A stretch of DNA of 64,000 bases from Nitrosopumilaceae archaeon (GTDB lineage Archaea > Thermoproteota > Nitrososphaeria > Nitrososphaerales > Nitrosopumilaceae). Positions 8,462 to 64,000 of this stretch are shown piece by piece; the first letter of the stretch is position 1, and every line of letters begins with the position of its first letter. Position numbers and translations under genes: made by a program. The notes below the pieces were generated by a model. That model ran no database searches. It saw only the letters and a list, made by a program, of their open reading frames with translations, and was not told the origin of the DNA. The stretch is taken from positions 576,001-640,000 of the forward strand of contig CBDBCR010000001.1 in NCBI GenBank assembly GCA_965203465.1, read 5' to 3'.

Positions 8462-8611
8462 CGGGGCGGATTGGCCAGATCGCGCCCGCCCGCTCCGGTG
8501 GGCCGAGGCGGAGGAAGGCGCTCGGTGGGGGGGGGGTGGACGAATTTCGGGATACTACAAAACCGCCCGGCCGGGTAATCGCCTTATATAACCGGCCCCC
8601 GGCGCCTCCCC

Positions 8612-9865
8612 GTGGCAGCGGAAGCCGAATTCGTCCAGATAATAGTGGGCATCGGGATACTGCTCTTTGCGGCAAAGCTCATGGCGGAGCTGTTCTTGCG
8701 CCTAAAGCTGCCCATCGTGCTCGGCGAGCTGCTCGCCGGCATGATAGTGGGCCCGTTCGCCCTGGGCTCGTTCCTCACGTGGGACGGCCAGCATCTGCTC
8801 GAAATCGGGCCGGAGCTGAGGACGCTCGGGCAGATGGGCGCCATAGTGATACTGTTCATGGCCGGCCTCGAGATGACGCCGAAGGAGTTCATCAGGGGCG
8901 GCAAGGCCTCGTTCACGGTCGGCACGCTCGGCGTGGTGGTGCCGTTCTTCGTGGGCCTGCTCGCGTTCCAGTCGTTCGGCTACGACGCGCTCCAGTCGAT
9001 GATGATAGCCACGGCGCTGACCGCGACCAGCATCGCCATATCGATACAGGTGCTCAACGAGTTCGGCAAGATAAAGACGCCCGAGGCCAGGCTCATAATC
9101 GGCGCGGCCGTCATAGACGACATACTCGCCATAGCGGTGCTCTCGGTGGTCTCGTCGATCGCCGCGGACGGCAGCATAGACGACATCAGCATCACCGACG
9201 TGACGCTGACCATACTCGAGGTGCTCGGCTTCTTCGCGGCCATGCTGCTCGCCGCCGTGTTCCTGGTCCCCAAGATGGTCAGCCAAAAGCTGTGGAAGGC
9301 GCGGGGGGGCATAGAGGGGATAGTGACGGCCGTGTTCTTCGGCGCCGCGGCCCTGGCCGGATCGCTGGGCCTCTCGCCGATAGTCGGCGCGTTCGCCGTC
9401 GGCATGGCGCTCTCGACCACCAAGGTCTTCGAAAAGGTGGAGGACTACATAGGCAAGGTCGGCCTGATATTCGCGCCGCTCTTCTTTGCCATCATCGGCG
9501 CGGAAGTGGACTTTACAAAGATAGACGCCAACATACTGATGCTAAGCGGCATAGTCATAGTCATAGCGGTGGCCACAAAGATGCTCGGCTGCGGGCTGCC
9601 CGCCGCGTTCTTCCTCAAGGACCGCAGGCAGGGCATGCGCGTCGGCATAGGCATGGTCTCGCGCGGCGAGGTGGGCCTCATAGTGGCCGGCGTGGGGGTA
9701 TCGCTGAGCATACTGACCCCCGAGGTCTACTCTACCATCATACTGATGGTGGCCGTCACCACGATAATCACGCCGCTGTGGCTAAAGGTAGAGTACCGCC
9801 GGGAGGCGGCGAGGGGCGGGGGAGGCGAGCCTGCCGACGCGAAGCTGCCCGATCCAAAGGGCTAG
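8612..9865 (+). CDS. CPA2-family cation:proton antiporter
   Basis: About 12 TM helices; ATSIAI, AAVIDDI and RGEVGL motifs. Confidence 0.92.
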   Translation: MAAEAEFVQIIVGIGILLFAAKLMAELFLRLKLPIVLGELLAGMIVGPFALGSFLTWDGQHLLEIGPELRTLGQMGAIVILFMAGLEMTPKEFIRGGKASFTVGTLGVVVPFFVGLLAFQSFGYDALQSMMIATALTATSIAISIQVLNEFGKIKTPEARLIIGAAVIDDILAIAVLSVVSSIAADGSIDDISITDVTLTILEVLGFFAAMLLAAVFLVPKMVSQKLWKARGGIEGIVTAVFFGAAALAGSLGLSPIVGAFAVGMALSTTKVFEKVEDYIGKVGLIFAPLFFAIIGAEVDFTKIDANILMLSGIVIVIAVATKMLGCGLPAAFFLKDRRQGMRVGIGMVSRGEVGLIVAGVGVSLSILTPEVYSTIILMVAVTTIITPLWLKVEYRREAARGGGGEPADAKLPDPKG

Positions 9866-35533: not shown

Positions 35534-36736
35534 GTGGCAAGGACGTTCCTAAGGTGCAGGGAGTGCGGCAAAGAGCGCGAGGCGGACTTTCTGTACGTGT
35601 GCGACGAGTGCTTTGGGCCCCTGGACGTAAAGTACCGCTTTCCGAGCGTCTCGAGGGGGTCGTTTGAGGGCAGGGAGCAGACCTACTGGAGGTACTTTGA
35701 GATGCTGCCCATCGAGGACAAAAAGAACATCGTCAGCATAGACGCGGGCATGACCCCGCTGGTAAAGGCCGAAAAGCTGGGCGCCGAGCTGGGCCTGGAC
35801 AACCTGTACGTCAAGAACGATTCGGTAAACCCGACCTTTTCGTTCAAGGACAGGCCGGCCGGCGTGGCCGTCTCGAAGGCGCGCGAGTTCGGCCTCGGCG
35901 CAGTGGGCTGCGCATCGACCGGGAACTTGGCCTCGGCCACCGCCGCGCACGCCGCGCGCGCGGGGCTGGAGTGCCACGTGTACGCCCCGGGCGACATCGA
36001 GATGGCAAAGATCGCGCAGGCCCTCTCGTACGGGGCCAACTTCGTGGCCGTCGACGGCACCTACGACGACGCCAACAGGATGGCCGCGCAAAAAGGGGAC
36101 CGCCTGGGGCACGGCATCGTAAACATCAACATGCGCTCGTACTACGTGGAGGGCTCCAAGACGCTGGCCTACGAGGCGGCCGAGCAGCTCGGCTGGAGCG
36201 TGCCGGACCGGATAGTGGTGCCGGTGGGCAGCGGCGCCATGCTCAATTCCATATGCAAGGGGTTCGAAGAGCTCGAAGAGCTGTCGCTTACCGGCACCGC
36301 GAAGGGCATGCGGGTGGCAGCGGCCCAGCCGCGCGGGTGCGCGCCGATAGTAAAGGCGTACGAGGCCGGCGAGGCGCGCGTGCGGCCCGTCGAAAAGCCG
36401 CGGACCGTGGCAAAGAGCCTGGCCATCGGGGATCCGGGCGACGGCGCGTACGTGCTGCGCCGCCTCGAGCAGTACCGGGGCACGGCGCGCGAGGCGGGCG
36501 ACCGCGAGATACTCGAGGCCATACTGCTCCTTGCGCGCACCGAGGGGATATTCACCGAGCCGGCCGGCGGGGTCTCGGTGGCCGTGCTGCGCAGGATGGC
36601 CGAGCAGAACCTCATAGGCAGGGACGAAAAGGTCGTCTGCTACGTGACCGGCAACGGGCTAAAGGCGACCGGACCGCTCATGGACGTGCTGGAAAAGCCG
36701 CGCCTGGTGCGGCCCGACGCGGGGGTGGCCGCATGA
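35534..36736 (+). CDS. thrC: Threonine synthase-family PLP enzyme
   Basis: N-terminal zinc ribbon, NPTFSFKDR (PLP lysine), ASTGN, PVGSG, EGIFTEP, TGNGLK. Confidence 0.88.
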   Translation: MARTFLRCRECGKEREADFLYVCDECFGPLDVKYRFPSVSRGSFEGREQTYWRYFEMLPIEDKKNIVSIDAGMTPLVKAEKLGAELGLDNLYVKNDSVNPTFSFKDRPAGVAVSKAREFGLGAVGCASTGNLASATAAHAARAGLECHVYAPGDIEMAKIAQALSYGANFVAVDGTYDDANRMAAQKGDRLGHGIVNINMRSYYVEGSKTLAYEAAEQLGWSVPDRIVVPVGSGAMLNSICKGFEELEELSLTGTAKGMRVAAAQPRGCAPIVKAYEAGEARVRPVEKPRTVAKSLAIGDPGDGAYVLRRLEQYRGTAREAGDREILEAILLLARTEGIFTEPAGGVSVAVLRRMAEQNLIGRDEKVVCYVTGNGLKATGPLMDVLEKPRLVRPDAGVAA

Positions 36737-38061
36737 GCAAGATAGCTTTCGTGGTGCCGTCGGTCCTCAACAAGGGCGGCGGCGAAAGGAGGCTGGAGCT
36801 GTCCGCGGCGACCGCCGGCGAGGCGTTCGCAAAGGCGGCAGAGCAGATGGGCGATGACTTTGCCAGGCGCGTGCTCGAGCCGGACGGCTCGCCGCGCTCG
36901 CTGATAAACGTGTACATCAACGGCAAGAACGCCGACTTTGCCGGGGGCGCAGAGGCGCCCCTCTCGGACGGCGACGAGCTGTACATACTGCCCGCCGTCG
37001 CGGGCGGCTCGCTCTCAGAGGCCGAGCTGGACAGGTTCTCGAGGCAGGTGATGCTCGAAGAGATCGGCTACGGGGGGCAGCTGAAACTGAAAAACGCGCG
37101 CGCCTGCATCGTGGGCGCCGGCGGCCTGGGCAACCCGATAGCCGAGCGCCTGGCCGCGATGGGCATAGGGGCCATCCGGCTGGTGGACCGCGACGTAATC
37201 GAGACGTCCAACCTGCACAGGCAGACGCTGTACGACGACGCCGACGTGGGGCAGGTAAAGGTCGAGGCCGCCGCGCGCAAGCTGGCCCGGCTGGGCCCCT
37301 CGTGCAGGCTCGAGGCGCTGGCCATGTCCGTAAACGAGTACACCGCCCCCGAGGCGGTCTCCGGGTGCGACGTGGTCATCGACGCGCTCGACAGCGTCGA
37401 TGCCCGCTACGCGCTCAACAGGGCCTGCGCGGAGGCCAAGATACCGTTCGTGACGGGGGCCGCCGTCGGGGTCTCGGGGCAGGCCTTTACTGTGCTGCCC
37501 GGCGAATCGGCGTGCTACCACTGCATGTTCCCGTCGCTGGACGAGGAAAAGATGCCCACCTGCAGCATAGAGGGAGTCCACCCTTCCGTGCTTTCCGTGA
37601 TCGGGGGCATAGAGGTGGCCGAGGCGGTGCGCGTGATACTGGGGCAGCGGCCCGCGCTGGCCGGCAGCATGCTGCACGTCAACATATCCACGATGGACTT
37701 TGAAAAGGTGCGCACGTTCAGGGCGCAAGAGTGCGCCGTGTGCGGCTCGGGCAAGAGGGCCGAGGCGCCCAAAAAGGATCTCATCGTGGAAGAACTGTGC
37801 GGCAGGGGGCGCGGCAAGAGGACGTTTTCGATCACGCCGACCGGCCCGTTCAGGCTGGACGCGGGCTCGGTGGCCGCTGCCGCCCAGAGGCGCGATCTGG
37901 CCTCCGAAGACATGGGCGAGCTGGGCCTCTCGCTGCGCAACCAGGACTATTCGGTCAGCATCATGAACCGCGGCTCGGCCGTGATCGTGGGCGCGCGCGA
38001 CGAGGACGAGGCCGTCTCGATGTACCGCTCGCTGGTGGGCGGCGCGCCGGGGCCCCGATAG
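36733..38061 (+). CDS. Fused MoaD/ThiS ubiquitin-like domain and ThiF/MoeB E1-like adenylyltransferase
   Basis: ATGA overlap with thrC; Ubl ends at LPAVAGG, then RFSRQ, GAGGLG, SNLHRQ, DALD, CYHC, PTC, CAVC. Confidence 0.9.
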   Translation: MSKIAFVVPSVLNKGGGERRLELSAATAGEAFAKAAEQMGDDFARRVLEPDGSPRSLINVYINGKNADFAGGAEAPLSDGDELYILPAVAGGSLSEAELDRFSRQVMLEEIGYGGQLKLKNARACIVGAGGLGNPIAERLAAMGIGAIRLVDRDVIETSNLHRQTLYDDADVGQVKVEAAARKLARLGPSCRLEALAMSVNEYTAPEAVSGCDVVIDALDSVDARYALNRACAEAKIPFVTGAAVGVSGQAFTVLPGESACYHCMFPSLDEEKMPTCSIEGVHPSVLSVIGGIEVAEAVRVILGQRPALAGSMLHVNISTMDFEKVRTFRAQECAVCGSGKRAEAPKKDLIVEELCGRGRGKRTFSITPTGPFRLDAGSVAAAAQRRDLASEDMGELGLSLRNQDYSVSIMNRGSAVIVGARDEDEAVSMYRSLVGGAPGPR

Positions 38062-49455: not shown

Positions 49456-52161
49456 TCACTTGGCCTTGCTTTTCTTCAGCGTCTCCAGCAGGCGGAATCC
49501 AGCATTGCGCTTGTTTTCGTCCGCGGACTCGGTCAGCGATTCTGCGTAGGACGCGATCTCGTCCGCGTGCTTTTGGTTTCCCATCTCTGCGGCTAGCATG
49601 TACGCGTCGTACTGATCCCTTCTCTCCAAGTTGCGCGCTTTTGTGACATACGCGTTCGAGATCGTAGCCATCAGGCCGGAGTCAAGCTCTTCGTAGCGTC
49701 CGTTCGCGTCATTCAGCCGCAGCCCGTATTTGAAGGCGCCTTTGGACGCGATGGCGTCGAAAAAGGCGGATCCGACGTGTTCTTTCAGGCTGTCGGGCGT
49801 GCGCGTGAGAAGGAACCACGTCAACCTCGGATTCATGTCTCCGTCTCTGAGCAATTCCAGCATCGAGTCGATCGCAGCCTTTGTCGTCAAGAATTGCCGA
49901 TACTTCGGATCGTCTAAAATCTCGAGCAGCTCGTACAGGAAGCCTGTCTGCTTGAACTCTTCAAACGCGTCGCTGGCCGTCTCGAGATACTCCGTGTCTT
50001 CGCCTTTTTTTCCAGCCAAGATCCTGAGGATCTCGGTGTTGTGCCTCTGATCGGAGCAGGACTGTAGCACTTTATGCAGCGCCCTGTCGATTTTCTTGTC
50101 CAAGTCGATCCTGCCGATCTGCTCCAGCAGACGGTGAGGAAGGGGCGCATTGGCGCCGGCACACTGCATCGCTAGATCGGCGATCCTGGAGCGGAGCGTT
50201 TCGGCCTCGTCTGGAGACATGGACCCGGCCAATTGGGCGCACAGTATGTCGTACCCGGCGCTCGGCGCGACGCCGAAGGTGGCCTCGGATATTATCTTCG
50301 AGACCAGGCCCGACATCCTGGCGCCCTCCCGGCGGTATTCCAGGCATTCCGCGACGAAAAATTCGTCCCACAAACCGGCCGCGTCGATCTTTTCGACCGC
50401 CATTTCGCCCATGCGCTCGGCCAAGCCTGCCCCGACTACGGCGCGGTTCTTGGAAAGCAGCTCTAGCGCGGCCAAGTCCGGCGGGTCGGCTAGGAACGCA
50501 TCGGACACGAGTCTTTCGCAGACAATGTCCCGCATGCGCGCCGGCATCAGGCCTACCTGCTCGGCCCCGATCCTTTCGACCATGCCGCGCGCGTTTCCGA
50601 GCAGCGGGCCCGCGACGTAGTGCCCGAGAGTGGCGGCCATTCTCGCGCGGACCGGAGAGTCGGGCGCCGCCTTTACCAGTTCTGCCAGCATCGCCACGTT
50701 GCCGCTCAGCGCGGGCATGCCGGGATCGGACTCCGAGGCCGATTCCCTCAGTATCTCGTCGATCCTGCCCATGTACGCCTCTTGAGCCCCCGCGTCCAGT
50801 TTTCCGAACATCCGGACCGCCTTTGGGTCCGAGCGGGAGAACGCGTCCTCGAACTCGCTTATGCCCGGCAGCGCCGCGTGCGGCGCCTGGCTCATCCGGA
50901 GGAACGGGACTATGTCCGCTCCGGGCATCTGCGTGGCGCCCAGGAACCTCAAAAGCCGCGAGCGCTCGGCCTCGGGCATCTTGGCCGCCTTTTCGCACCA
51001 CTCTTTCTGCTTGGCGCCGTCTTGGTACATGCCCGGATCCCCCTCCAGCGCCTTGCAGAATTCGGGCCACTCGTGCATGAGCACGACCGACTTGAGCAGC
51101 GAGTTGGTATCGCCCGTGACGAGGCCGCTTTGGAGCATGCCTGACTTTTCCCTGGATTCTGCCAGCCTGTACAGCGCCACGGCTATGTTGAGGAACTGGT
51201 TGATTTTCCTGGGGTTGTCGATCGCGCCGGACAGCAGTATCGTGAGGGCGAACTGGTCGAACTCCACGCTGCGCCTGCCGATCTGCTTCTTTGCGTAGGA
51301 CCTGAGGCTCTCGCCCAGAAACGACGGCACCCGGAGCGAGACCTGGAAGAACTTGCTCAGAAACTCGTTGCCGTCCCTGTCGGTGCTCGCCGCGCCCGTT
51401 CTCTTTAGGTGCGAGACGAGCGCCTCGTCGTCGCACGCGAGCACGTTGACGCAGCCGTCCTTCACCATGAACGTCTGGATCAGGCCCAGAATTTTCACGG
51501 CCACGGCGCTCTCGCACCTGTCCAGGTTGTCTATCACGACCACCAGTCTCTTGGGCCTGTGCTTGCCGACGATCCCGTCGTAGATCCTGCCGAACTGCCT
51601 CGGGGACGCGGTGGGCGGGATCGTCTTCCTCGCCGTGCTGAAAATCATCTTTGCCGACAGCGCCAGCAGGGTGAGGCACAGCGCCCCGATCACGGTCATG
51701 CCCGCCATGTCCGGATACAGAGCGAGGGCGGCAGCGAGGGCGGCCGCCGCGCCCGCGCCGCCGAACACGGTCCGCCGCCGGCCCCCCAGGCGGCGCAGCT
51801 CCGCGTGCTGGATCTGCCGCCGGTTGTACAGCATGTCGTCCAGCTCTTCCCGCTTGTACGGGGAGCCGGCCTGGGCATTGAGCTCCTCGAGCAGCCCCTG
51901 GGGCAGGGATTCGGGCGAGAGCCCCCACGCGTCCACCTCGGCGTACCCGAAGCCCTTGAGGTTCTCGTCGCTGCGTATCCTGTCGCGGAGCATGTGCGCT
52001 ATGGACGACTTGCCCACGCCCCATTTACCGAAAAGCCCGACGTTGAGCGGGGTCTCGGACTTTAGCAGGATGTCGGCCAAGGAATCGACGTAGTGCCGGT
52101 GCGCAAACTCGTCGCCGGCCCGGCCTTCCAGGGCGCTGTCTTTGAGGTAGTCTTGGCCCAC
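49456..52161 (-). CDS. KAP-family P-loop NTPase with two TM helices and a long helical C-terminus
   Basis: GLFGKWGVGKSS Walker A, DAW, TM pair, VVIDNLDRC Walker B, FLSKFFQV, NPRKI..F.N; GTG start at 52161. Confidence 0.9.
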   Translation of the reverse strand: MGQDYLKDSALEGRAGDEFAHRHYVDSLADILLKSETPLNVGLFGKWGVGKSSIAHMLRDRIRSDENLKGFGYAEVDAWGLSPESLPQGLLEELNAQAGSPYKREELDDMLYNRRQIQHAELRRLGGRRRTVFGGAGAAAALAAALALYPDMAGMTVIGALCLTLLALSAKMIFSTARKTIPPTASPRQFGRIYDGIVGKHRPKRLVVVIDNLDRCESAVAVKILGLIQTFMVKDGCVNVLACDDEALVSHLKRTGAASTDRDGNEFLSKFFQVSLRVPSFLGESLRSYAKKQIGRRSVEFDQFALTILLSGAIDNPRKINQFLNIAVALYRLAESREKSGMLQSGLVTGDTNSLLKSVVLMHEWPEFCKALEGDPGMYQDGAKQKEWCEKAAKMPEAERSRLLRFLGATQMPGADIVPFLRMSQAPHAALPGISEFEDAFSRSDPKAVRMFGKLDAGAQEAYMGRIDEILRESASESDPGMPALSGNVAMLAELVKAAPDSPVRARMAATLGHYVAGPLLGNARGMVERIGAEQVGLMPARMRDIVCERLVSDAFLADPPDLAALELLSKNRAVVGAGLAERMGEMAVEKIDAAGLWDEFFVAECLEYRREGARMSGLVSKIISEATFGVAPSAGYDILCAQLAGSMSPDEAETLRSRIADLAMQCAGANAPLPHRLLEQIGRIDLDKKIDRALHKVLQSCSDQRHNTEILRILAGKKGEDTEYLETASDAFEEFKQTGFLYELLEILDDPKYRQFLTTKAAIDSMLELLRDGDMNPRLTWFLLTRTPDSLKEHVGSAFFDAIASKGAFKYGLRLNDANGRYEELDSGLMATISNAYVTKARNLERRDQYDAYMLAAEMGNQKHADEIASYAESLTESADENKRNAGFRLLETLKKSKAK

Positions 52162-52221
52162 GCGGGGCGCGTACCGTTCCCCTATAAAAAATCGGGGGAT
52201 TCGGGGCCGCCGCGAGGGCTG

Positions 52222-52296
52222 GAAGCAATGCGCAATCGCCCAAACTCCCCGCATCCGCGCCTAGAAAACCCGGCCCCGCCAGTTTACGCGCGACTT
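52222..52296. mobile_element. MITE-like element, copy B (diverged)
   Basis: ATGCGCAATC...ATCCGCGCCTAGAAAA...GTTTACGC with the same spacing as copy A. Confidence 0.6.
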
Positions 52297-52551
52297 TCGC
52301 CCGCAGACGCCGCGCGCCTCGCGGCGCTTTTGGGCCCTCGCTTACGCGGGCGCGCAGAGCCGCCGCCGCGCGCTCCCGGCTCCCCCGGGCCGCGGACGGA
52401 GCCCGGACTTGCGATGCCGCCCCCGGGCGATCTCTGCGCCCGTCGGGGCGCGGCGTGCGCGGGGGGCCGGCGCTTTCGGCGCCCCGCGGGGACGCGCGGC
52501 GCGGGCCTCGCGCCAAGCGCGGACGGGCAAAGTCAGCGCCCTATGTCAAAG

Positions 52552-52625
52552 TAGGTCATGCGCAATCTCGCGAATCCCGCAGATCCGTGCATAGAAAACC
52601 CCAACCGGCGTGTTTACGCAGACTT
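52552..52625. mobile_element. MITE-like element, copy C
   Basis: ATGCGCAATC...ATCCGTGCATAGAAAA..CAACCGGCG.GTTTACGCA aligns without gaps to the core of copy A. Confidence 0.7.
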
Positions 52626-52642
52626 ATGAACGCGGATCCTGC

Positions 52643-52804
52643 TCATTCCACCAGCTTTACGCTCTTGGCCAGTTCCAAAGCATCGTCCAACGCTTTGCGC
52701 TGAGCGGGGGTCGGGCCGCGTTTGAGGTTGTCCATGAGCCTCGCCCAGTCCTCGGCATTGAGCGGTTTTATGTACCGGTTGGACGTGCACGGCCGAGCTG
52801 GCAT
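52643..52804 (-). CDS. Small protein resembling the C-terminal part of DUF1778/TacA-type antitoxins
   Basis: IKPLNAEDWARLMDNLKRGPTPAQRKAL resembles the LxxxDWxxFxxxLxxPPxP pattern; no GNAT partner adjacent. Confidence 0.5.
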   Translation of the reverse strand: MPARPCTSNRYIKPLNAEDWARLMDNLKRGPTPAQRKALDDALELAKSVKLVE

Positions 52805-52885
52805 GCCCATCCTGTTTCCGGAACTTTCCACGCAACGGCGCACCGCGCGCTCTTATCTAAACGCTTTGGAACTGTCGGGGTCCGT

Positions 52886-53546
52886 TTACGTACCCACTAG
52901 GCACGCGCGCGAGCCCGCCGCCCTGATCTGGGCGTATTCGGGGGCCGGCGGGACGCCCAGAATCTCGCCCAGCTTGCCCATGGTCGGGAGGCCAAGCTTC
53001 TCCTCGAAGCGGGTCATCAGGATGCCGAACCTCGCCCGGCCGCCGGCAGTCGAGCATTTCTGGCGCACGCTGCGCTGCCTGATCACGGACCTCATGACGC
53101 GCTCGCACGCGTTGCTGGTAGGATCCAGGCCCGGGTGCAGGATGAACGTGAAGAGCTGGTCTGCCGCGCGCTCCAGCTTGCCGCCGAACTTTCCGCGGCC
53201 CGCCTTCTTGTACTCGCCCGCCAGTTCCTTGGCGGCCGACGCCAGCATCGCGTGGTTTTCGCTAGCGCGGGTCTGCAAGCGCGCCGCCCGGATGCGTCAG
53301 CGACCTTGCCTCGTCGTAGAGGACGAGCAGCCTGAGGTGCAGTTCCACGTCCGCTTTTCCTTGGACCGCGATGTCTGCCCGGCATCCAGGAGGACGTGCG
53401 AAGTACTGCTGGCGCACCAAGATCACGTCGTAGACTACGTACCCGTCGGCCGTGCTGGCCGCCCTGATCCTGTACTCGAAGTGCTCCCCGAATGCCGCGC
53501 CGCCGCGCGACGACGCCGGGCGCACCGCGACCAGCGTGAGGGTCAC
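52886..53546 (-). pseudogene. IS66-family transposase remnant (frameshifted C-terminal half)
   Basis: VRPASSRG...ADGYVVY in one frame, then QLFTFILHPGLDPTSNACERVMR in another. Confidence 0.8.
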
Positions 53547-53928
53547 CAGCCCCCGCGCGCAGACCTGCCTGCGCTCGGCTCATCCGCCGCCGGATCGGGC
53601 GGGCAGGTCCTGGACGGCACGGCCCGCCGTGCGGGATCGGATCCGCGGGGTGCCGCGGCTTTTCTGGCGGCACGCTGCGCTCCTTCCCCTCGCCCCGGCC
53701 GGGCGACGACTGCCTCGAGCACCGAGGCCGAGAGGTTCGGGAAAGGCGTGATCGAAAAGGACGCGTAGTGGGCGGGCAAAAGGGTGCCGCGGCGGGCGCT
53801 TCCGAGGCGGCGGGGGGCGCAAGGCACCGTACTGGCGCGGCCCTTGCGCGCCGGGCCGGAGCGCGCCGTCGCGATCTTGCCCGGCGCGGAGCCCCCGCCT
53901 GCCCGGCCGCAAAAGCGCGCGGGCCGAT

Positions 53929-54477
53929 CTACGGAGCGCGCGCGCCCTCGGTTCCGGACACGAATTTGTCCCACACGTATCTGAACGAGGCGTTCTGTTT
54001 TTTGGCCTTCTCGACGTCGAACATTTCGAGTGTTTTCGCCATGAAATCCTTCCGCGACGGCCACCCTCCCCGCTCGAGCATCCTCTCGAAATTCTCCTTG
54101 GACACGGATTCCGTGTTCGTGTGGTAGGGGATTTGCAGGCGCGCGCACTCGTCAGTTCCCATGCCGGCGAGGCACCAGCTCTCGATTTCGGTTTTTACCA
54201 CCGCGATGTTGCCGTGGCGCGCGTTGGGGATCTTGCGCAGAGTCTCCTTTCTTTGTATGTAGCAGGTGCTCTGGTCAAAGTCCGCGAACACGATGTAATC
54301 GCGCTTGATCTTGTGCAGCGTTTCGACGAACTGCACCAGCGTTTCCTTGTCTTTGCTAGCGTACAGGCGGGTCTCGACGTTGTATCTTTTGGCGAGCTCG
54401 CCGCGCATCACAGAATCGAAGAATTTCTCGTCGTCGCGCCCCTCCAAGAACACGACCACGCTCGCGTCCATCACCAC
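53929..54477 (-). CDS. TOPRIM-like protein (DUF4435/DUF4276-like), partner of the ABC ATPase
   Basis: FLEGRDD, FADFD (DxD), EIESW acidic motifs; overlaps the ATPase stop. Confidence 0.75.
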   Translation of the reverse strand: MVMDASVVVFLEGRDDEKFFDSVMRGELAKRYNVETRLYASKDKETLVQFVETLHKIKRDYIVFADFDQSTCYIQRKETLRKIPNARHGNIAVVKTEIESWCLAGMGTDECARLQIPYHTNTESVSKENFERMLERGGWPSRKDFMAKTLEMFDVEKAKKQNASFRYVWDKFVSGTEGARAP

Positions 54478-55700
54478 TCCAGCATGTTCTGCATGTGCAT
54501 CTCGGCCAAGCCCACGCCGTTTTCCAGAAACTGCGCGATCTCTTTGTTCGCCGACGGGCGGCAGATCTCTGAAAACCCCCCGGGAACTTTTTTGATCGCG
54601 TACAGGCTCTCTGTTCCGGCATGGCGGACGATCTCCGAGCTGTGGGTTGTCATTATGATCTGCCGTTCTCGGGAGGCGTCCATTGCCATATCCACCGTCC
54701 TTGCCATCAGGGAGGGGTGCATGCTCTTCTCCGGCTCTTCTATAGCCACCACGGGCATGTCCCCGAAATACATGGACGCCACCACGACAGCCGCGCTGAC
54801 GATTCCGTCGGAGAGCGGAGGCGGGGGAAACTGCGCCTTTTCGGGGCGCCTGCCTGCCGCGGCGAGCGCGACGGACTTTGCAAAGTCCTCAGCACCCATC
54901 GATTTGACGGACGGCAGCATTTCGGACACCAGGGCGTGCAGTTTCTTTCTGGATTCGCCGTCGGCTAGCGTGCGCTTTAGCACCTGCACAAGGTCGGGAC
55001 CTCCGCCCTCTAGCTCCGGCGGCCCTTGGGGGATTCCGGCCGCTCTGGAAAAGTTGTACGCGCCTATGTTTTCAAAGCGAAGGAGCCACGGAAAAAAGTC
55101 CACCAAAAGACCGGATTCGACGAGCAGCTTGCCCTCTGCGTCCGACGCCGCGCAGCGCCCGAGCTCGCCTCCGAGGCGCCCACCAAGATCCGTCTCCAAG
55201 CGAAGCCTGCCGCCGCGCCGCGCCGCGTGGACGGTTCCCTCGCGGTCTGCGTTCGAGTACTCTGGGCGGTTGCATCCGGCGCCCGCGGGCCCTATCTGCG
55301 TGCGCTGTTCGCACACGTCAAAGGCCCAGGAATCTTCGATCAGCTCGGCCTTTTCGTCTCCCGCCCTGAACTCGAGGCGCCACTTCCCGCCCGTGCTGTA
55401 CACCTTGCGCCGGCCCGGTATGCGCGCGCGCGTTTTCGGCGCCTTTACTTCCAACTCGACCACCGTGCTTTTGCCAGCCAGTTTCGGGTTGCCGACGTAT
55501 TGTGGGCCCCCCTGCGCCGAGACGGCGCCGTCCAGCCCGCTCTTGCAAAGGTCGCGCAGAAACCCGAATATGCTCACAAGGTTCGACTTGCCGGAGGCGT
55601 TGGCCCCGACCACGACGTTGAGCCTTTCCAGTTCCAGATCCATGTCTGCAAAACTCTTGAAGTTTTGGACCTTGATCCGCTTCAGGAACAGTCCCTGCAT
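54471..55700 (-). CDS. AAA_21/AAA_15-type ABC ATPase
   Basis: NFKSF, GANASGKSN, LSDG signature, IEEPE, TTHS. Confidence 0.9.
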   Translation of the reverse strand: MQGLFLKRIKVQNFKSFADMDLELERLNVVVGANASGKSNLVSIFGFLRDLCKSGLDGAVSAQGGPQYVGNPKLAGKSTVVELEVKAPKTRARIPGRRKVYSTGGKWRLEFRAGDEKAELIEDSWAFDVCEQRTQIGPAGAGCNRPEYSNADREGTVHAARRGGRLRLETDLGGRLGGELGRCAASDAEGKLLVESGLLVDFFPWLLRFENIGAYNFSRAAGIPQGPPELEGGGPDLVQVLKRTLADGESRKKLHALVSEMLPSVKSMGAEDFAKSVALAAAGRRPEKAQFPPPPLSDGIVSAAVVVASMYFGDMPVVAIEEPEKSMHPSLMARTVDMAMDASRERQIIMTTHSSEIVRHAGTESLYAIKKVPGGFSEICRPSANKEIAQFLENGVGLAEMHMQNMLEW

Positions 55701-55829
55701 GCACCAGTCACCGGCCAACGCGTTAATAACCATTGCCGGCGCGCGGGATCTTCCGTGATCGGCTGCCCGGCCCCGGAATCTGCCGGAACCGGCCCGTACT
55801 TTAAATACACGGCGCGCCCGGAAGAAAGC

Positions 55830-56792
55830 GTGGAGACTCCGGCCGTGGCCCACGCGGACATACTCGCCTTCGCGGAAGAACACGTCAACCTTCCTAGGGA
55901 TTCCGCGCGCCGGTACCGGGAGCAGGTAAACGGCCTCAGAGAGAACCTCGCGCGGCACATCAAGGAGAACCCCGGCTTCGGGCTGGTCAAGATGCTGCAT
56001 TCGGGAAGCGTCGCCAAGGGGACCGCCCTGCGCACCATCAACGACCTCGACGTGGCCGTGTACGTGAAAAAAGAGCAGGCGCCGGTCGACGAGAAAAAAG
56101 TGGTCGGCTGGATGGAGGGGTGCCTCCGCGATGCGTACCCCAACAAGGATCGGGGCGACTTTGCCTGCCTGGACCACTGCGCAAGGATCAATTTCAGAGG
56201 AACCGGACTGGACGTGGACGTAGTCCCCGTCATTTACGAGGGGGGCGACGACGACCGGGGATACCTGGTGGACAAGTACACCGGCGAGAGGCTGCACACC
56301 AGCATCCCGCTCCACCTGGAATTCATGCGCAGGCGCAAGGGGAACGATCCGCATTTCGCGCAGGTCGCGCGCCTGGCCAAGTGGTGGGCAAAGCAGCGAA
56401 AAGACGAAAATCCCGGATTCAAGTGCAAGTCCTTCCTGCTGGAACTCCTGCTGGCCCACCTGTCGGACTTGGGGGCGAAGATGAACGACTATCCGCAGGC
56501 GCTCGAGACGCTGTTCAACTACGTGGTGCGCACCGGCCTCGAGGAGCGCGTGTCGTTCGACGACTACGATTCCGGCGCCCTTCCGGGCCCCACGGGGGCC
56601 GCCATCGAAGTACTGGATCCGGTCAACGCCGACAACAACGTCACCGGCGGGTATTCGGACGGCGACCGCGACGCGCTGGTGGGTGCCGCAGAAGAGGCGG
56701 CAGACGCCATACGCGAGGCCCTTTACGCCACCACCAAGGGGCGGGCGGTGGAGCGCTGGCAGGCCGTCCTGGGGGAGTCTTTCAGGGGGTAG
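55830..56792 (+). CDS. cdnC: CBASS CD-NTase, CdnC-like (type III)
   Basis: FAEEHVNLP, SGSVAKGTALR..NDLDVAVY, third Asp in DVDVVP, KSFLLEL, DPVN..NNV; resembles E. coli CdnC as recalled; TTTAAATA near 55800. Confidence 0.92.
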   Translation: METPAVAHADILAFAEEHVNLPRDSARRYREQVNGLRENLARHIKENPGFGLVKMLHSGSVAKGTALRTINDLDVAVYVKKEQAPVDEKKVVGWMEGCLRDAYPNKDRGDFACLDHCARINFRGTGLDVDVVPVIYEGGDDDRGYLVDKYTGERLHTSIPLHLEFMRRRKGNDPHFAQVARLAKWWAKQRKDENPGFKCKSFLLELLLAHLSDLGAKMNDYPQALETLFNYVVRTGLEERVSFDDYDSGALPGPTGAAIEVLDPVNADNNVTGGYSDGDRDALVGAAEEAADAIREALYATTKGRAVERWQAVLGESFRG

Positions 56793-56796
56793 TCTC

Positions 56797-57300
56797 ATGT
56801 CGACGCATTCCTTCACGACGAGCTCCGCGTTCACCAAGACCGCCTCGGCGTACATCGCCTCCAAGGTGTCGGCGGATCTCAGGGCCATGAGCGCGTACTA
56901 CGGGAGGCCCAGCGAATCCGAGATCGCGGACTACCAGGAAGAACTGAACGAACTCTTGCCTGGAGGCTACGTGTCGAGCGTGCAGTACGGGTTCAAGCGC
57001 AACGGCAAAAAGATAGTAGTCTTGGAATACGAACACAGGCCGTCGGGCCTGCGGGACGACAACTCCGGCCGCGTTTTTTCCAGGGCAGATGTCTCTGGCG
57101 CGGAGTGGTTTTCGTTCCTGACATACAGCGCAAAGTGGGACGCGCTGCACGACGGCGCCAAGAAGCAGATCCGACTGCGCCTTCCGTTCCAACGCTCCGA
57201 GGGACACGAACCGAGGGACGGCGACGGCTACTGGGCGGCCGACAAGAGCTACTCTGCGCAGGGCGCCGGCGCGCAGCGGAGGACGTTCCGCCCGCACTAG
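56797..57300 (+). CDS. cap7: Bacterial-type HORMA domain protein
   Basis: SKV.ADL..M..YYG.PS...I..Y.EEL..LL..GY...V.YGF pattern; lies between the CD-NTase and the AAA+ ATPase. Confidence 0.88.
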   Translation: MSTHSFTTSSAFTKTASAYIASKVSADLRAMSAYYGRPSESEIADYQEELNELLPGGYVSSVQYGFKRNGKKIVVLEYEHRPSGLRDDNSGRVFSRADVSGAEWFSFLTYSAKWDALHDGAKKQIRLRLPFQRSEGHEPRDGDGYWAADKSYSAQGAGAQRRTFRPH

Positions 57301-57309
57301 GTGTTGTGC

Positions 57310-58251
57310 ATGAGCTCGCAGGATCTGTTCGACTATGTCCGGGAAATGCCGGACGAAGACGCCGCCTGCCAGTTCGAGGCGCTCGTCGGGCTGGATCGCC
57401 TAAAGGATACGGTGCTGAAAGAGGCCCGCCTCGTAGTAGTTCCGGGGTCGCTGGAAGACTGGAGCAGGGAAAAGCACGGCTCCGTGCTGCCGTGCGTGGC
57501 GCAGTTCCGCCAGCGCTCTCCGCTGATGGTTTTTTACGGGGACGTGGGCACGGGCAAGACTACGCTGGCCGATAGCCTGGGGGACGCCGTCGCCCGCAAA
57601 GAGGGGATCTCCGTGACGCTCTTCCGCCTGAGCCTGATAGCCCGCGGGCAGGGGGCCGTGGGCCAGATGACCAGCCTGATATCGCAGGCCTTCGACGAGG
57701 TGGCACGAAAGGCCGGGCGCGGGGCCGGCCGGGACGGAAAGCCCTCGTCGGCGGTCGTGTTCGTGATCGACGAGGCAGACGCGCTGGCCGAATCCCGGGA
57801 CACCGAGCAGATGCACCACGAGGACCGCGCCGGCGTCAACGCGCTGATCCGGGGCATAGACCGCCTCGCCAAGGAGCGCCTGCCGGCCCTGGTGGTGCTG
57901 TGCACCAACCGGTACGAATCGCTCGATCCGGCGGTCCTGCGCCGCGCGGCCATCAGCCACGAGTTCAAGCGGCCCAACGACGAGCAGAGGGAGGCGCTGC
58001 TGCGCAGGGCCTTCGGCGACGTCTTCGGGACCGAAGAATACGAGCGGCTGGTCGGGCGGACCGGCCCCGGCGAGGCCGGATACGGGTATTCTTTTTCGGA
58101 CATAACGCAGCGCCTCGTGCCGAACATACTCTTGGAGGCGTTTCCGGACGGCCGCGTCGGTTTCGGCACCGCCTCGTCGGTGCTAGACAGAACCGGCCCG
58201 ACCCCGCCGTTCGGCCGCCGGGGGAGGGACGGGGCACGCCCACCGGCCTGA
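57310..58251 (+). CDS. cap6: TRIP13/Pch2-like AAA+ ATPase
   Basis: GDVGTGKT, RGQGAVGQMT, IDEADALA, QMHHEDRAGVNALIRGID, LDPAVLRRA. Confidence 0.9.
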   Translation: MSSQDLFDYVREMPDEDAACQFEALVGLDRLKDTVLKEARLVVVPGSLEDWSREKHGSVLPCVAQFRQRSPLMVFYGDVGTGKTTLADSLGDAVARKEGISVTLFRLSLIARGQGAVGQMTSLISQAFDEVARKAGRGAGRDGKPSSAVVFVIDEADALAESRDTEQMHHEDRAGVNALIRGIDRLAKERLPALVVLCTNRYESLDPAVLRRAAISHEFKRPNDEQREALLRRAFGDVFGTEEYERLVGRTGPGEAGYGYSFSDITQRLVPNILLEAFPDGRVGFGTASSVLDRTGPTPPFGRRGRDGARPPA

Positions 58252-59660
58252 GCGCCAGCGGCGCCCGGATCAGTGGCGACAACTACCAGCACCTGTTCGC
58301 CTGGCTCAAGGTGCTGGAGGCGAGATCTCAAGACATCGAAAGCGTCGGAATCGAAGATCCCGACGCGGAAAACGCGGACGACGTGACGGTGTACATGAAA
58401 GACGGGAGGCGGGAATGCTACCAAGCAAAGTATTCGAACGACGCGAGCCGGCCCGCGACGCTCGAATGGCTCACCGAATCCGAACCGGGCGGGCGGAGCA
58501 TGGTGCAGGGGTTTTACGAGCTGTGGAAGGGGGCAGAGATCAAGCCCCGGATAACACTGGCGACCAACCGGCCCCCGGGCGGCGATCCGCTGGCGGGGCT
58601 GGCAGACGGAGACGACGACACCGTCGCGCGCCGCCTAGAGCACGCAAAACCCGGATCCAAAGAAGGCCGCCTGTGCGCCAGTCTGGCCGGCCACCTCGGA
58701 GCGTCCACAGCCGACACCGTGGCGTTTCTTCGCGACGTCCGGTTTTATTTCAGATCAAGGGGGGAGCTGATCGGGCTGGTCAAGGAACGCATGGGCGCCG
58801 CGGGCCTCTGCAACGACGACGACGCGGTTGCCAGAGGCGTCGGCATTGTGCGGGACTGGACGACGGGGGGCAAAAGAAGAATCGCCAGGGCGCAGCTGCT
58901 CTCTGCCCTCGAGCCCCTAAAGCGCCCGCCCCGTTCTACGGCGTCGATCCTGGTCCAGATGCTCGACCGCGATCCGGAGCCGGCAAGCGCCACTATTTCG
59001 TTCGACTGGACGGATCTGTTTCCGGGCAGCGAGCCCAGGCGCGTGCCGTCGGATCCGGGTCTGTGGAACTCTGAATTCCTGCCGGCGTTCAGGCGGGCGG
59101 CGCGGACGCTGCGCTCGCGACACCACGCGCACGTGCTGGTGCGGGGGTACATGCGCCTGCCAACGTGGTTCGCGGTGGGCGCGGCGCTGGCCGAGGCCGC
59201 CTACTCTGAAGTCTCGTACCTCGAGGGGGAGGAGGAACGGTCGTCCGCGGGGGAGATATCCAGAGTAGACGTCGAGTGCTACGTGTCCGACCTGGGCCCC
59301 GGCCGGGACGTTGCGGTGGGCGTCGCGCTGGCATCGGATCCGTCGCCCGAAGCGGTGAAGTACATACGCGGCCAGATTCCGGGCGTCGGCAGATATGCCA
59401 GCGTCCGCCACCCCGGCGGGGCCAGCCGCCGGGCTATACGGGACGCGGCCGAAGCCGGGGGCTGGGCCCTCGGAGCGTGCGACTCGATCCGCCGCCTCTG
59501 CCAGAGCGGGCCGGAACGGGTGCACCTCTTCATGTCGGCGCCGCGCGGCGTGGCGCTGCTGCTGGGCCGCCTGTGGACCCGCATGCCTTGCACGCAGCTC
59601 TACGAGGATCTCGGACCGGGCAAGGGATACTGCCCTTCCTACCTGTTCCCTGCCTCCTAG
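58248..59660 (+). CDS. Cap4-like endonuclease-SAVED effector
   Basis: GARISGDNYQH, E...DDV...YQAK nuclease motifs; C-terminal VHLFMSAP..VALLLGRLW...QLYE SAVED pattern; only CTG 58248 is available as start. Confidence 0.85.
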   Translation: MSASGARISGDNYQHLFAWLKVLEARSQDIESVGIEDPDAENADDVTVYMKDGRRECYQAKYSNDASRPATLEWLTESEPGGRSMVQGFYELWKGAEIKPRITLATNRPPGGDPLAGLADGDDDTVARRLEHAKPGSKEGRLCASLAGHLGASTADTVAFLRDVRFYFRSRGELIGLVKERMGAAGLCNDDDAVARGVGIVRDWTTGGKRRIARAQLLSALEPLKRPPRSTASILVQMLDRDPEPASATISFDWTDLFPGSEPRRVPSDPGLWNSEFLPAFRRAARTLRSRHHAHVLVRGYMRLPTWFAVGAALAEAAYSEVSYLEGEEERSSAGEISRVDVECYVSDLGPGRDVAVGVALASDPSPEAVKYIRGQIPGVGRYASVRHPGGASRRAIRDAAEAGGWALGACDSIRRLCQSGPERVHLFMSAPRGVALLLGRLWTRMPCTQLYEDLGPGKGYCPSYLFPAS

Positions 59661-62997: not shown

Positions 62998-63620
62998 CTA
63001 CGCGCGCTTCACCCCGAACTCTTTCATGACCTTCTGCACGACCTCTTCTGCCTCCCTTGGGACGTCGTCTCGTTCCAGATATGACAGGCGCCTTGCGAGC
63101 TCCGCCTTGGGGTACCGTCGCCCGGACCGCCTTTTCCACTCTTCCTGCAGGACGTTGACCGCGCCGCTGCTCCGCCTGCGCCTGTCCAGTTCCTCCGCGG
63201 ACAACCCGAACTCTATCCCGTGTTTTCTCGCCAGCTGCCTGCTGTATCTTGCCAGCATCGAGCTCGGAAACAAGTCCTCAAAGTCGCCGTCCAGAAAATG
63301 GCACTGGTTCGCGGCGAGTATGCCTTCCTCTACGAGTTTGTCAACGTGCTTGCGCGCCCTGCTGTCCTTGTCCAAAAGGACGAAGATCTTCTTTCCTGAC
63401 ATCTTCAGGTACCGGATCAGCGGCCCGAGGTGCTTTGCGTTGCCGCACCCCCCTATGTCGAGCGTCCAGGGGGCCATCGCTACCTCGTAGCCCAGGGTGC
63501 GGGCCAGCGCCGGTATCGCGGTGTCTTCGGACTTGCCCTCCGCGCAGCACAGGTAGTCGCTGTCAAGCACGTCCGAGTAGCTTGTCCCCATGCTGGATCT
63601 GATCAGGTTTTTTTCCGCGC
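62998..63620 (-). pseudogene. OLD-family TOPRIM C-terminal domain lacking its ATPase
   Basis: AEGKSE, IGG, LLDKD, DFED, late K.ELA; upstream sequence is antisense to other genes; possible ATG at 63591. Confidence 0.72.
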
Positions 63621-63850
63621 GCGAAATCCCCGAATCTGCGGACGATCCCTCGAATCCGGCCCGGCACATAGTGGACGACCGCCAGGGCAGGGCGTGGCCG
63701 TGCAGCCCGGGATTCCTGCAGTACCACCTGCTGTACCCAGAGGACAGCTGGCAGCCGATCAGGGGCGGCAGCAGCGGCGCGATAACGTGGATCGTGGATC
63801 GCGCCTGCAGCATGGTGGACAGGCGGAGCCTCTGGGGGCCGGCGGTTTGA
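63590..63850 (+). pseudogene. C-terminal remnant of an E2-like (CEHH-type) protein
   Basis: RAWPCSPGFLQYH....DSW..IRG...G.I.WIV resembles the C..G..EYH....DSW pattern; in-frame stop at 63578 prevents upstream extension. Confidence 0.5.
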
Positions 63851-64000
63851 AGATCCGCCGCGTGGACCTTCCGCGCAAGATCCTGCAGCAGACGTTCGAT
63901 TTTCTGGGGGAGCGGGGATCGCGCGGGCTCGAAGCACACGCCATGTGGGCGGGCGCGGTCTCGGAAGGGACGTTCGGCGTATCGGCCGCGATATTCCCGC
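63847..64000 (+). CDS. JAB/MPN-domain peptidase N-terminus (runs off window), not in ORF track
   Basis: TTGA overlap with the upstream stop; LKIRRVDLPRKILQQTFDFLGERGSRGLEAHAMWAGAVSEGTFGVSAAIFP with the E...WAG motif. Confidence 0.68.
   Translation, partial: MKIRRVDLPRKILQQTFDFLGERGSRGLEAHAMWAGAVSEGTFGVSAAIFP

Follow-up and report, generated by a model that had tools for sequence, protein, structure and literature searches.

A probable relic of a Type II BilABCD operon in a sponge-associated, ammonia-oxidising thaumarchaeon

Type II Bil systems and the locus at the end of the window

Nothing in prokaryotes parallels the eukaryotic antiviral tagging of the ubiquitin/ISG15 type more clearly than the Bil systems, which the literature, as far as it was accessible to us, describes almost only from bacteria. 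We report here a Bil locus of an archaeon, which lies across the end of a 64,000-nucleotide stretch of DNA (in what follows the window, G000:C1:576001-640000, where G000 is the label of the source genome). Judging by the similarity of its genes, the end of the window covers the 5' edge of a Type II BilABCD (CEHH/6C) operon for the conjugation of a ubiquitin-like protein (Ubl). The locus is very probably what is left of such an operon after its pathway was dismantled, and not a working divergent version of it.

The Type I Bil system is reportedly the one of Millman et al. 2022. Its Ubl is built of two beta-grasp domains and has a terminal Gly, according to the accessible part of a preprint by Hör et al. 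(bioRxiv 10.1101/2023.09.04.556158). The Type II BilABCD systems, to which the best matches of the present locus belong, are the CEHH/6C operons, with the gene order Ubl, E2, deubiquitinase (DUB), E1 (Chambers et al., bioRxiv 10.1101/2023.09.26.559546). In the portion of this second preprint available to us, the Type II Ubl is a single beta-grasp domain whose conserved Gly has up to nine residues after it, and these are trimmed by BilC; the CEHH residues of BilB from Ensifer aridi are Cys138, Glu144, His146 and His151; BilC from E. aridi is specific for its cognate Ubl; and 162 Type II operons are counted, most of them from Rhizobiaceae. Its Supplementary Table 1, in the form available, names one archaeon, Heimdallarchaeota LC_3, and a search of that table for the terms Nitroso, Thaumarchaeota and Cenarchaeum returned no occurrence. 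Structures of the Type II Bil system of E. aridi TW10 are found in the PDB entries 8TYX, 8TYY, 8TYZ and 8TZ0.

We described the present locus on a segment of 20 kb around the end of the window (L003), in which a coordinate equals the window coordinate minus 56000; positions above 64000 are extrapolated window coordinates and lie outside the window. Three genes homologous to those of Type II BilB, BilC and BilD form a chain: a remnant of bilB (E2), whose stop overlaps the start of bilC as TTGA; bilC, which encodes the JAB/JAMM peptidase; and bilD (E1), whose ATG overlaps the stop of bilC as ATGA. For each of the three enzymes the best PDB matches are chains of the Type II BilABCD of E. aridi. 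A profile of three archaeal BilC homologues matched 8tyx_B, the DUB (BilC), over its full length (1.4e-24), the intact E1 of a relative (locus L018, see below) matched 8tyz_A, the E1 (BilD), over residues 96-504 (9.2e-31), and the profile of the E2 family matched 8tyz_C, the E2 (BilB), over profile positions 2-143 (9.1e-4). With the PADLOC matches to BilC and BilD given below, these matches uphold the edge of a Bil-type operon that an initial annotation of the window had proposed here, and assign it to Type II (CEHH/6C). The Type II set of four genes is incomplete in G000: a fragment of bilB, bilC and a broken bilD are present, and bilA was not found. The locus descends from a Type II Bil member and is not a complete member itself.

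The host is an ammonia-oxidising, sponge-associated thaumarchaeon. Its genome (4 contigs, 96.86% completeness) contains a full-length archaeal small-subunit ribosomal RNA at 1441.8 bits and a match to archaeal amoA at 1.9e-115, which bears out the archaeal origin supposed in the initial annotation. The GC content is about 65-70%. Public runs in which the stretch occurs carry labels of sponge or marine metagenomes, and no RNA run was listed among them. Unlike the Type II system of E. aridi, then, this one sits in an archaeon. Archaea have other systems of Ubl conjugation with a ThiF-type E1, namely SAMP/UbaA and the ubiquitin system of Caldiarchaeum; the SAMP system is not known to have an E2, and that of Caldiarchaeum has a RING E3 and a canonical E2. 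The proteins of the present locus are, unlike those, far nearer to the bacterial BilC and BilD, and the match to the NCBIfam model UbaA at the locus is weak (7.1e-6, far under its cut-off). The locus also shares with the Cap2 (E1-E2 fusion) and Cap3 (JAB) enzymes of CBASS the chemistry of a ThiF-type E1, an E2 and a JAB protein in a defence context. It differs from them in that E1 and E2 are separate genes, and in that a Ubl gene takes the place of the CD-NTase substrate. Finally, it resembles the Type I Bil system in its four activities and its gene order, and the PADLOC models of BilC and BilD match the proteins of G000; unlike Type I Ubls, the thaumarchaeal ones have a single domain, and their GG is followed by a tail. 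None of the PADLOC models, that of BilB among them, matched the E2s of G000 and its relatives.

The gene bilC (63847..64308, L003 7847-8308, forward strand) is an intact JAB/JAMM gene of 153 codons, of which the first 154 nt lie inside the window. It starts at TTG 63847, reads LKIRRVDLPRKILQQTFDFLGERGSRGLEAHAMWAG...IFP and carries QVHTHPGRAFHSRADD beyond the window edge; the unlisted JAB-type open reading frame (ORF) noticed in the initial annotation, coupled by TTGA to the preceding ORF, is this gene. Its protein matched the PADLOC model BilC at 3.2e-10 and the Pfam family Prok-JAB at 6.5e-4, which is under the curated cut-off. Residues E29, H86, H88, S95 and D98 align with E33, H94, H96, S103 and D106 of the E. 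aridi BilC. A JAMM motif of the form HxH-x7-S-x2-D had been predicted just past the window; the motif is indeed there, but its spacing is HxH-x6-S-x2-D, the same as in the solved BilC of E. aridi.

Lesions in bilA, bilB and bilD

The bilB remnant (63590..63850, forward strand) consists of the C-terminal 86 codons of a CEHH-type E2 of about 150-159 aa, the N-terminal 71 residues or so being absent. The ORF carries WPCSPGFLQYHLLYPEDSW, which includes the catalytic-type Cys. It had been described as ending in C.PG..QYH....DSW; this motif is present, but it is not terminal, as 32 residues follow it. Against the full-length relative P0015 (150 aa) the remnant (P0001) aligns to residues 72-150 with 58% identity, against the profile of the E2 family it matches at 3.0e-24 over positions 72-152 of 153 (81 positions), and against the gene preceding the JAB gene in a genome of the same genus (G003) it gives a tblastn match at 3e-17 with 53% identity. 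No second match to the E2 profile was found in the genome of G000. What is missing comprises the N-terminal helix region and the block NxxNWDFxPP, which reads NLENWDFLPP in all ten sequences of the aligned E2 set (A2). The Pfam family PF14455 (Metal_CEHH) matches 7 of 10 full-length relatives (best 7.8e-9) through their N-terminal half. The remnant alone has no match in Pfam, PADLOC or NCBIfam, because the Pfam CEHH signal sits in the half that is missing.

On its left side, the bilB remnant abuts a second truncated gene. This is an OLD/GajA/HEC-01A-like gene on the reverse strand (62998..63591), of which only the C-terminal TOPRIM part (197 aa), about the C-terminal third, is left. It matched the Pfam family OLD-like_TOPRIM at 0.0013, under the curated cut-off, and shares 50% identity, over 226 aa, with residues 352-576 of a complete ATPase-TOPRIM paralogue of 576 aa in the same genome, about 120 kb away (L002 366-2096, G000:C1 ~757821-759551). 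The PADLOC match of this paralogue to HEC-01A is at 2.1e-24, and it also matches AriA, GajA and Old. The DNA similarity to the paralogue stops at 63593, and we placed a rearrangement junction, which has no strand of its own, at 63594/63595: the DNA to its left is that of the OLD-like gene, and the DNA to its right is that of bilB. The two 5'-truncated genes meet there head to head with overlapping start codons. Since the ATG of the bilB remnant overlaps the start of the ORF on the opposite strand, there is no room for a promoter between them.

We compared this arrangement with contigs from public runs, of which X1 shares its sample with the assembly, and X3, X4 and X8 come from three other samples containing related strains. 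The contigs of X4 and X8 match G000 from 63595 rightwards, and their sequence to the left is unlike it. Read in the frame of bilB, the 30-letter loose end of the X4 contig continues the sequence of the E2 family (PP.AAYLSP before DLIRFF; compare P0015 and P0030). An ATG in this loose end was considered as a start of the E2 and rejected, as it aligns with the family-internal (L/W)PP. The junction as found in G000 is spanned by a contig of X1 (0 differences) and by a contig of X3, from another study (5 differences in 655 nt). A rearrangement with its junction at 63594/63595 has removed bilA together with the first 71 or so codons of bilB, and the same event has fused the rest of bilB head to head to the 5'-truncated OLD-like ATPase-TOPRIM gene.

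The Ubl gene itself was not found. The Ubl of G003 gave no tblastn match within the 20 kb of L003, and the genome of G000, at the completeness given above, has no match to PF10790 (DUF2604), the domain of the relatives' Ubls, at E <= 1. A literature search on DUF2604 returned no result.

The third lesion concerns bilD (64305-65798, L003 8305-9798, forward strand), a multidomain E1 pseudogene which lies wholly beyond the window and starts at ATG 64305. The initial annotation had predicted a ThiF/E1 gene just past the window, and this is the gene: its middle piece matched the PADLOC model BilD at 1.6e-13 and the Pfam family ThiF at 6.7e-10, besides giving weaker matches to PADLOC E1-E2 models (2.3e-6 and weaker). 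Read from its ATG in frame 1, it runs into a stop at 64805. The homology follows frame 1 to about 64528, frame 2 to about 64595, frame 3 to about 65298 and then frame 1 again to the stop. A tblastn search with the E1 proteins of G003 and L018 returned three collinear pieces, in frames +1/+3/+1, and the frame-2 piece SPSHVRLLDSGGGRDASATFV corresponds to FPQSHVSKIIIGDGDDPSTTLIF of L018. The aligned Cys is kept (HGDCGVF). At all three sites of frame change, bilD runs in a single frame in the contigs of X3, X4 and X8; relative to G000, these are one base shorter at L003 8528 and two bases longer at 8591-8595, and they gain a TG at 9298. We rejected the idea that the E1 is split or is made by programmed frameshifting, because three unrelated indels (+1, -2, -2) are involved and all of them are absent in the relatives.

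These frame breaks might be errors of sequencing or assembly; bilD would then be whole, and the loss of bilA and of the 5' part of bilB by rearrangement would be the only real lesion. An assembly in 4 contigs suggests long reads, the indel at L003 8528 falls within six consecutive G, a context prone to sequencing errors, and X1, the only run that agrees with the assembly in bilD (0 differences), comes from the assembly's own sample and is not independent proof of the indels. On the other hand, the other two indels change 2 nt each and lie outside homopolymers, one being a TG beside a TG, and the independently built contigs of X1 show 0 differences over L003 6900-8737 and 8714-10000 at a word depth of 10-11. 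We consider this explanation unlikely; even if it were true, the Ubl and a whole E2 would still be lacking.

Taken together, these lesions bear on the proposal of the initial annotation that a divergent, archaeal Bil-like system works here, that the CEHH motif of its E2 is altered and that the other genes follow just past the window. JAB and E1 are indeed found where they had been predicted, the TTGA and ATGA overlaps are those of a coupled operon, and the C-Q-H-Y variant of the CEHH motif is also found in a full-length relative of 150 aa and is so compatible with function. However, neither the locus nor the genome yielded a Ubl gene, the E2 lacks 71 of its 150 or so residues, including the invariant NLENWDFLPP, and covers only the part of the family profile given above, the E1 can be read only with three changes of frame, and there is no intergenic space for a promoter. 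We therefore abandon this part of the annotation, as the odds that the system works are very slight. As the Ubl is missing, the E2 is cut to half and the E1 is broken, conjugation should be impossible in G000, and the locus would confer none. The likeliest account is that it no longer functions and is what survives, within a defence island, of a decaying defence operon once acquired by horizontal transfer: the rearrangement is joined by three frame-breaking indels in bilD, and bilC alone is whole.

Several observations weigh against the reading of the locus as a relic. One of them is bilC, which is whole and has all its catalytic residues, and this could mean that it is still in use. It might have been kept as a stand-alone JAB peptidase, for instance one that removes the Ubl-type tags of another system or of a virus: it is the sole intact gene of the locus, the five residues E29, H86, H88, S95 and D98 are all present, and there is another E1-E2 (Cap2-like) gene in the window (35971-38061). 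Yet the region upstream of bilC is a gene fragment without obvious promoter, the BilC of E. aridi is, as far as the available part of Chambers et al. goes, specific for its cognate Ubl, and an intact ORF of 153 codons can be a gene which has simply not yet been hit. We regard such a role as rather improbable, if a little less so than sequencing errors in bilD; bilC may be either an unhit leftover or a gene retained for another use.

Other objections concern the contigs and the fold. Besides the two weaknesses already mentioned for the indels (the origin of X1 and the G run), metagenome contigs possibly contain several strains, so that the alleles of bilD cannot be phased with the types of junction, and X3 has both a junction like that of G000 and an in-frame piece of bilD. 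As to the fold of the E2, the AlphaFold2 model of the full-length relative P0005 is mediocre (pLDDT 69.4, pTM 0.57). In a Foldseek search with this model the top three matches are BilB chains, and these matches are weak (E 0.011-0.25, TM 0.25-0.32). With VIA-align, the same model gave Z scores of at most 3.5 (3.5 for a human E2-like protein, 3.0 for 8tz0_C). Last, one can notice that 63592-63675, read on the reverse strand, weakly and collinearly resembles the OLD-like paralogue for 26 residues past the junction. This similarity amounts to 10 of 26 residues (E 0.47 when taken alone), overlies the forward-strand DNA of bilB and blurs the exact breakpoint. The palindrome CTGATCAG lies in this stretch. 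The similarity may be due to chance or to microhomology at the breakpoint.

Intact relatives and the CEHH motif

The relic points to relatives in which the operon is whole. The initial annotation had suggested that intact copies be sought in Thaumarchaeota, and they were found there. A pattern scan of GTDB species genomes gave 23 pattern matches, of which 4 were confirmed as loci: they belong to two metagenome-assembled genomes (MAGs) of Nitrosopumilus, one MAG of Nitrososphaera and one contig of 2.7 kb labelled Alphaproteobacteria. In L018, L019 and L020 (the Nitrosopumilus and Nitrososphaera MAGs), Ubl, E2, JAB and E1 are collinear and each gene runs in a single frame; L021 reads E2-JAB-E1 and ends at a contig edge. 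In G003 (locus L010), all four genes are collinear too, the start of bilB being unclear. For this bilB (L010 7548-8012), 149 codons are open and homologous, with no ATG, GTG or TTG before codon 39, and the end of bilA contains a GTG that is off the frame by one base. A start codon of unusual type, a small indel or a fault of the assembly could account for this.

The Ubls of the relatives, ORFs of 96-142 aa, contain a single DUF2604 domain and continue beyond the GG with a tail. That of G003 matched DUF2604 at 3.3e-11 and ends in GPGRGG+RR, and the C-termini found among the relatives are GPGRGG+RR and GPGRGG+ITNP. The intact thaumarchaeal operons thus resemble the Type II system of E. aridi in the order Ubl-E2-DUB-E1, in a single-domain Ubl with a conserved Gly-Gly and a tail of 2-4 residues, in the JAMM spacing HxH-x6-S-x2-D, and in a multidomain E1 of about 510 aa with an aligned Cys in a ...CG... 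motif. They set off what is unlike E. aridi in G000, that is, the lack of a Ubl, the truncated E2 and the frameshifted E1. If an intact operon works as it does in E. aridi, BilC would trim the tail of pre-BilA after the C-terminal Gly or GG, BilD would adenylate BilA and take it onto its catalytic Cys, and BilA would then pass to the Cys in the CSPG loop of BilB and on to lysines of the target. The targets would plausibly be viral; in the Type I Bil system, the accessible part of the preprint of Hör et al. (bioRxiv 10.1101/2023.09.04.556158) points to a virion protein.

The Bil system is rare in the phylum. Of 61 relatives searched with the JAB protein, 5 gave a match, G000 being one of the five, and a search with the E2 profile in 401 sampled genomes of the phylum, a sample to which G003 does not belong, returned only G000 itself. 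With the JAB protein, 259 pattern matches were obtained on metagenome contigs, and none of them was confirmed as a locus. Among the published titles and abstract openings that we could judge, we found no Bil operon of Thaumarchaeota, so that the four-gene operons of this group would, on the literature available to us, extend the system to a second archaeal phylum. Two more distant loci of the same order or family may be mentioned: L011 (G058:C112) has a distant E2 (23.5% identity), a JAB gene and an E1 gene on one strand, and L012 (G006:C3) has JAB and E1 genes, with no match to the E2.

We then considered the CEHH motif of the E2, which had been called altered. In the bilB remnant C38, Q44 and H46 are present, and the fourth place is occupied by Y49/E51 and not by His. 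The relatives found in the database with the E2 gene of G003 are 97-188 aa long, and 66 representatives of the family are available there. We aligned 73 family sequences (nine earlier relatives and 64 new representatives, the fragment of G000 being left out). In this alignment, the Cys is present in 72 sequences and the first His in 71, and the place of Glu is held by Glu in 56 and by Gln in 6. The fourth place has 41 Tyr and 3 His in one column, or 22 His, 19 Glu and 14 Asp in an alternative column. An equivalent of His151 is found only in a 'classical' group of E2s, with the signature FLCxPGxREYHxHPxHSGDxW. All the archaeal sequences belong to a second, 'WFC' group, in which His151 aligns with a Tyr according to HMMER or with Glu/Asp according to MAFFT. 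The whole of this clade thus differs from E. aridi at His151, and the sub-clade of G000 differs from it also at Glu144, which has become Gln.

The signature WPC...LQYH...Y.EDSWQ of the G000 sequence is common to P0015 (150 aa, full length) and P0030. By comparison of these sequences, the C-Q-H-...-Y pattern, the altered CEHH of the initial annotation, appears as a trait of the sub-clade and not as a decay or peculiarity of this locus. For the same reason, the substitutions F37P, E44Q and R53S were discarded as signs of decay, the same residues being found in the full-length P0015 and in P0030.

From this we propose, tentatively and as something short of an even chance, that Nitrososphaerota carry a rare and horizontally mobile clade of Type II Bil of their own, whose E2 functions without the second CEHH His (a Tyr or an acidic residue being there instead, with Gln for Glu in a sub-clade of high-GC sponge symbionts), that this clade protects ammonia-oxidising archaea by attaching a Ubl to the virion proteins of archaeal viruses, and that G000 shows a system being lost. 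Type II Bil as such has already been published; what appears new is the thaumarchaeal clade with its variant E2 motif. This variant E2 is natural material for asking which of the CEHH residues matter.

Neighbouring defence genes

The proposal that the locus belongs to a defence island is borne out by its surroundings. A type III CBASS, an HEC-01-like pair, a KAP NTPase and two SIR2_2 genes are found within about 15 kb, and it is because of these defence-type genes that the label is justified. The copy in G000 exemplifies the turnover within such islands, where one junction has truncated two neighbouring defence genes and three indels have been added. The CBASS (55840-59660, forward strand) is complete, with PADLOC matches to a CD-NTase (4e-113), a HORMA protein (3.9e-52), a TRIP13 protein (2.6e-109) and a SAVED-PDDEXK effector (4e-95); it is of type III (HORMA/TRIP13) and is devoid of Cap2 and Cap3.

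A second gene for an enzyme of the ubiquitin type is present in the window: the E1-E2 (Cap2-like) ORF mentioned above (35971-38061, forward strand) has 696 aa and matches the PADLOC E1-E2 models, at best with 6.9e-26. Further defence-type genes (KAP, HEC-01-like, SIR2_2) lie at 49456-56888 and at 66599-71855 (L003 10599-15855). The KAP NTPase is PifA/QatA-like and has 932 aa, and the HEC-01A-like ATPase is paired with a DUF4435/HEC-01B-like gene. The two SIR2_2 genes are paralogous and flank an ORF of 223 aa which has no family match and carries a zinc-protease-like motif, HEFxHxxGxxH.

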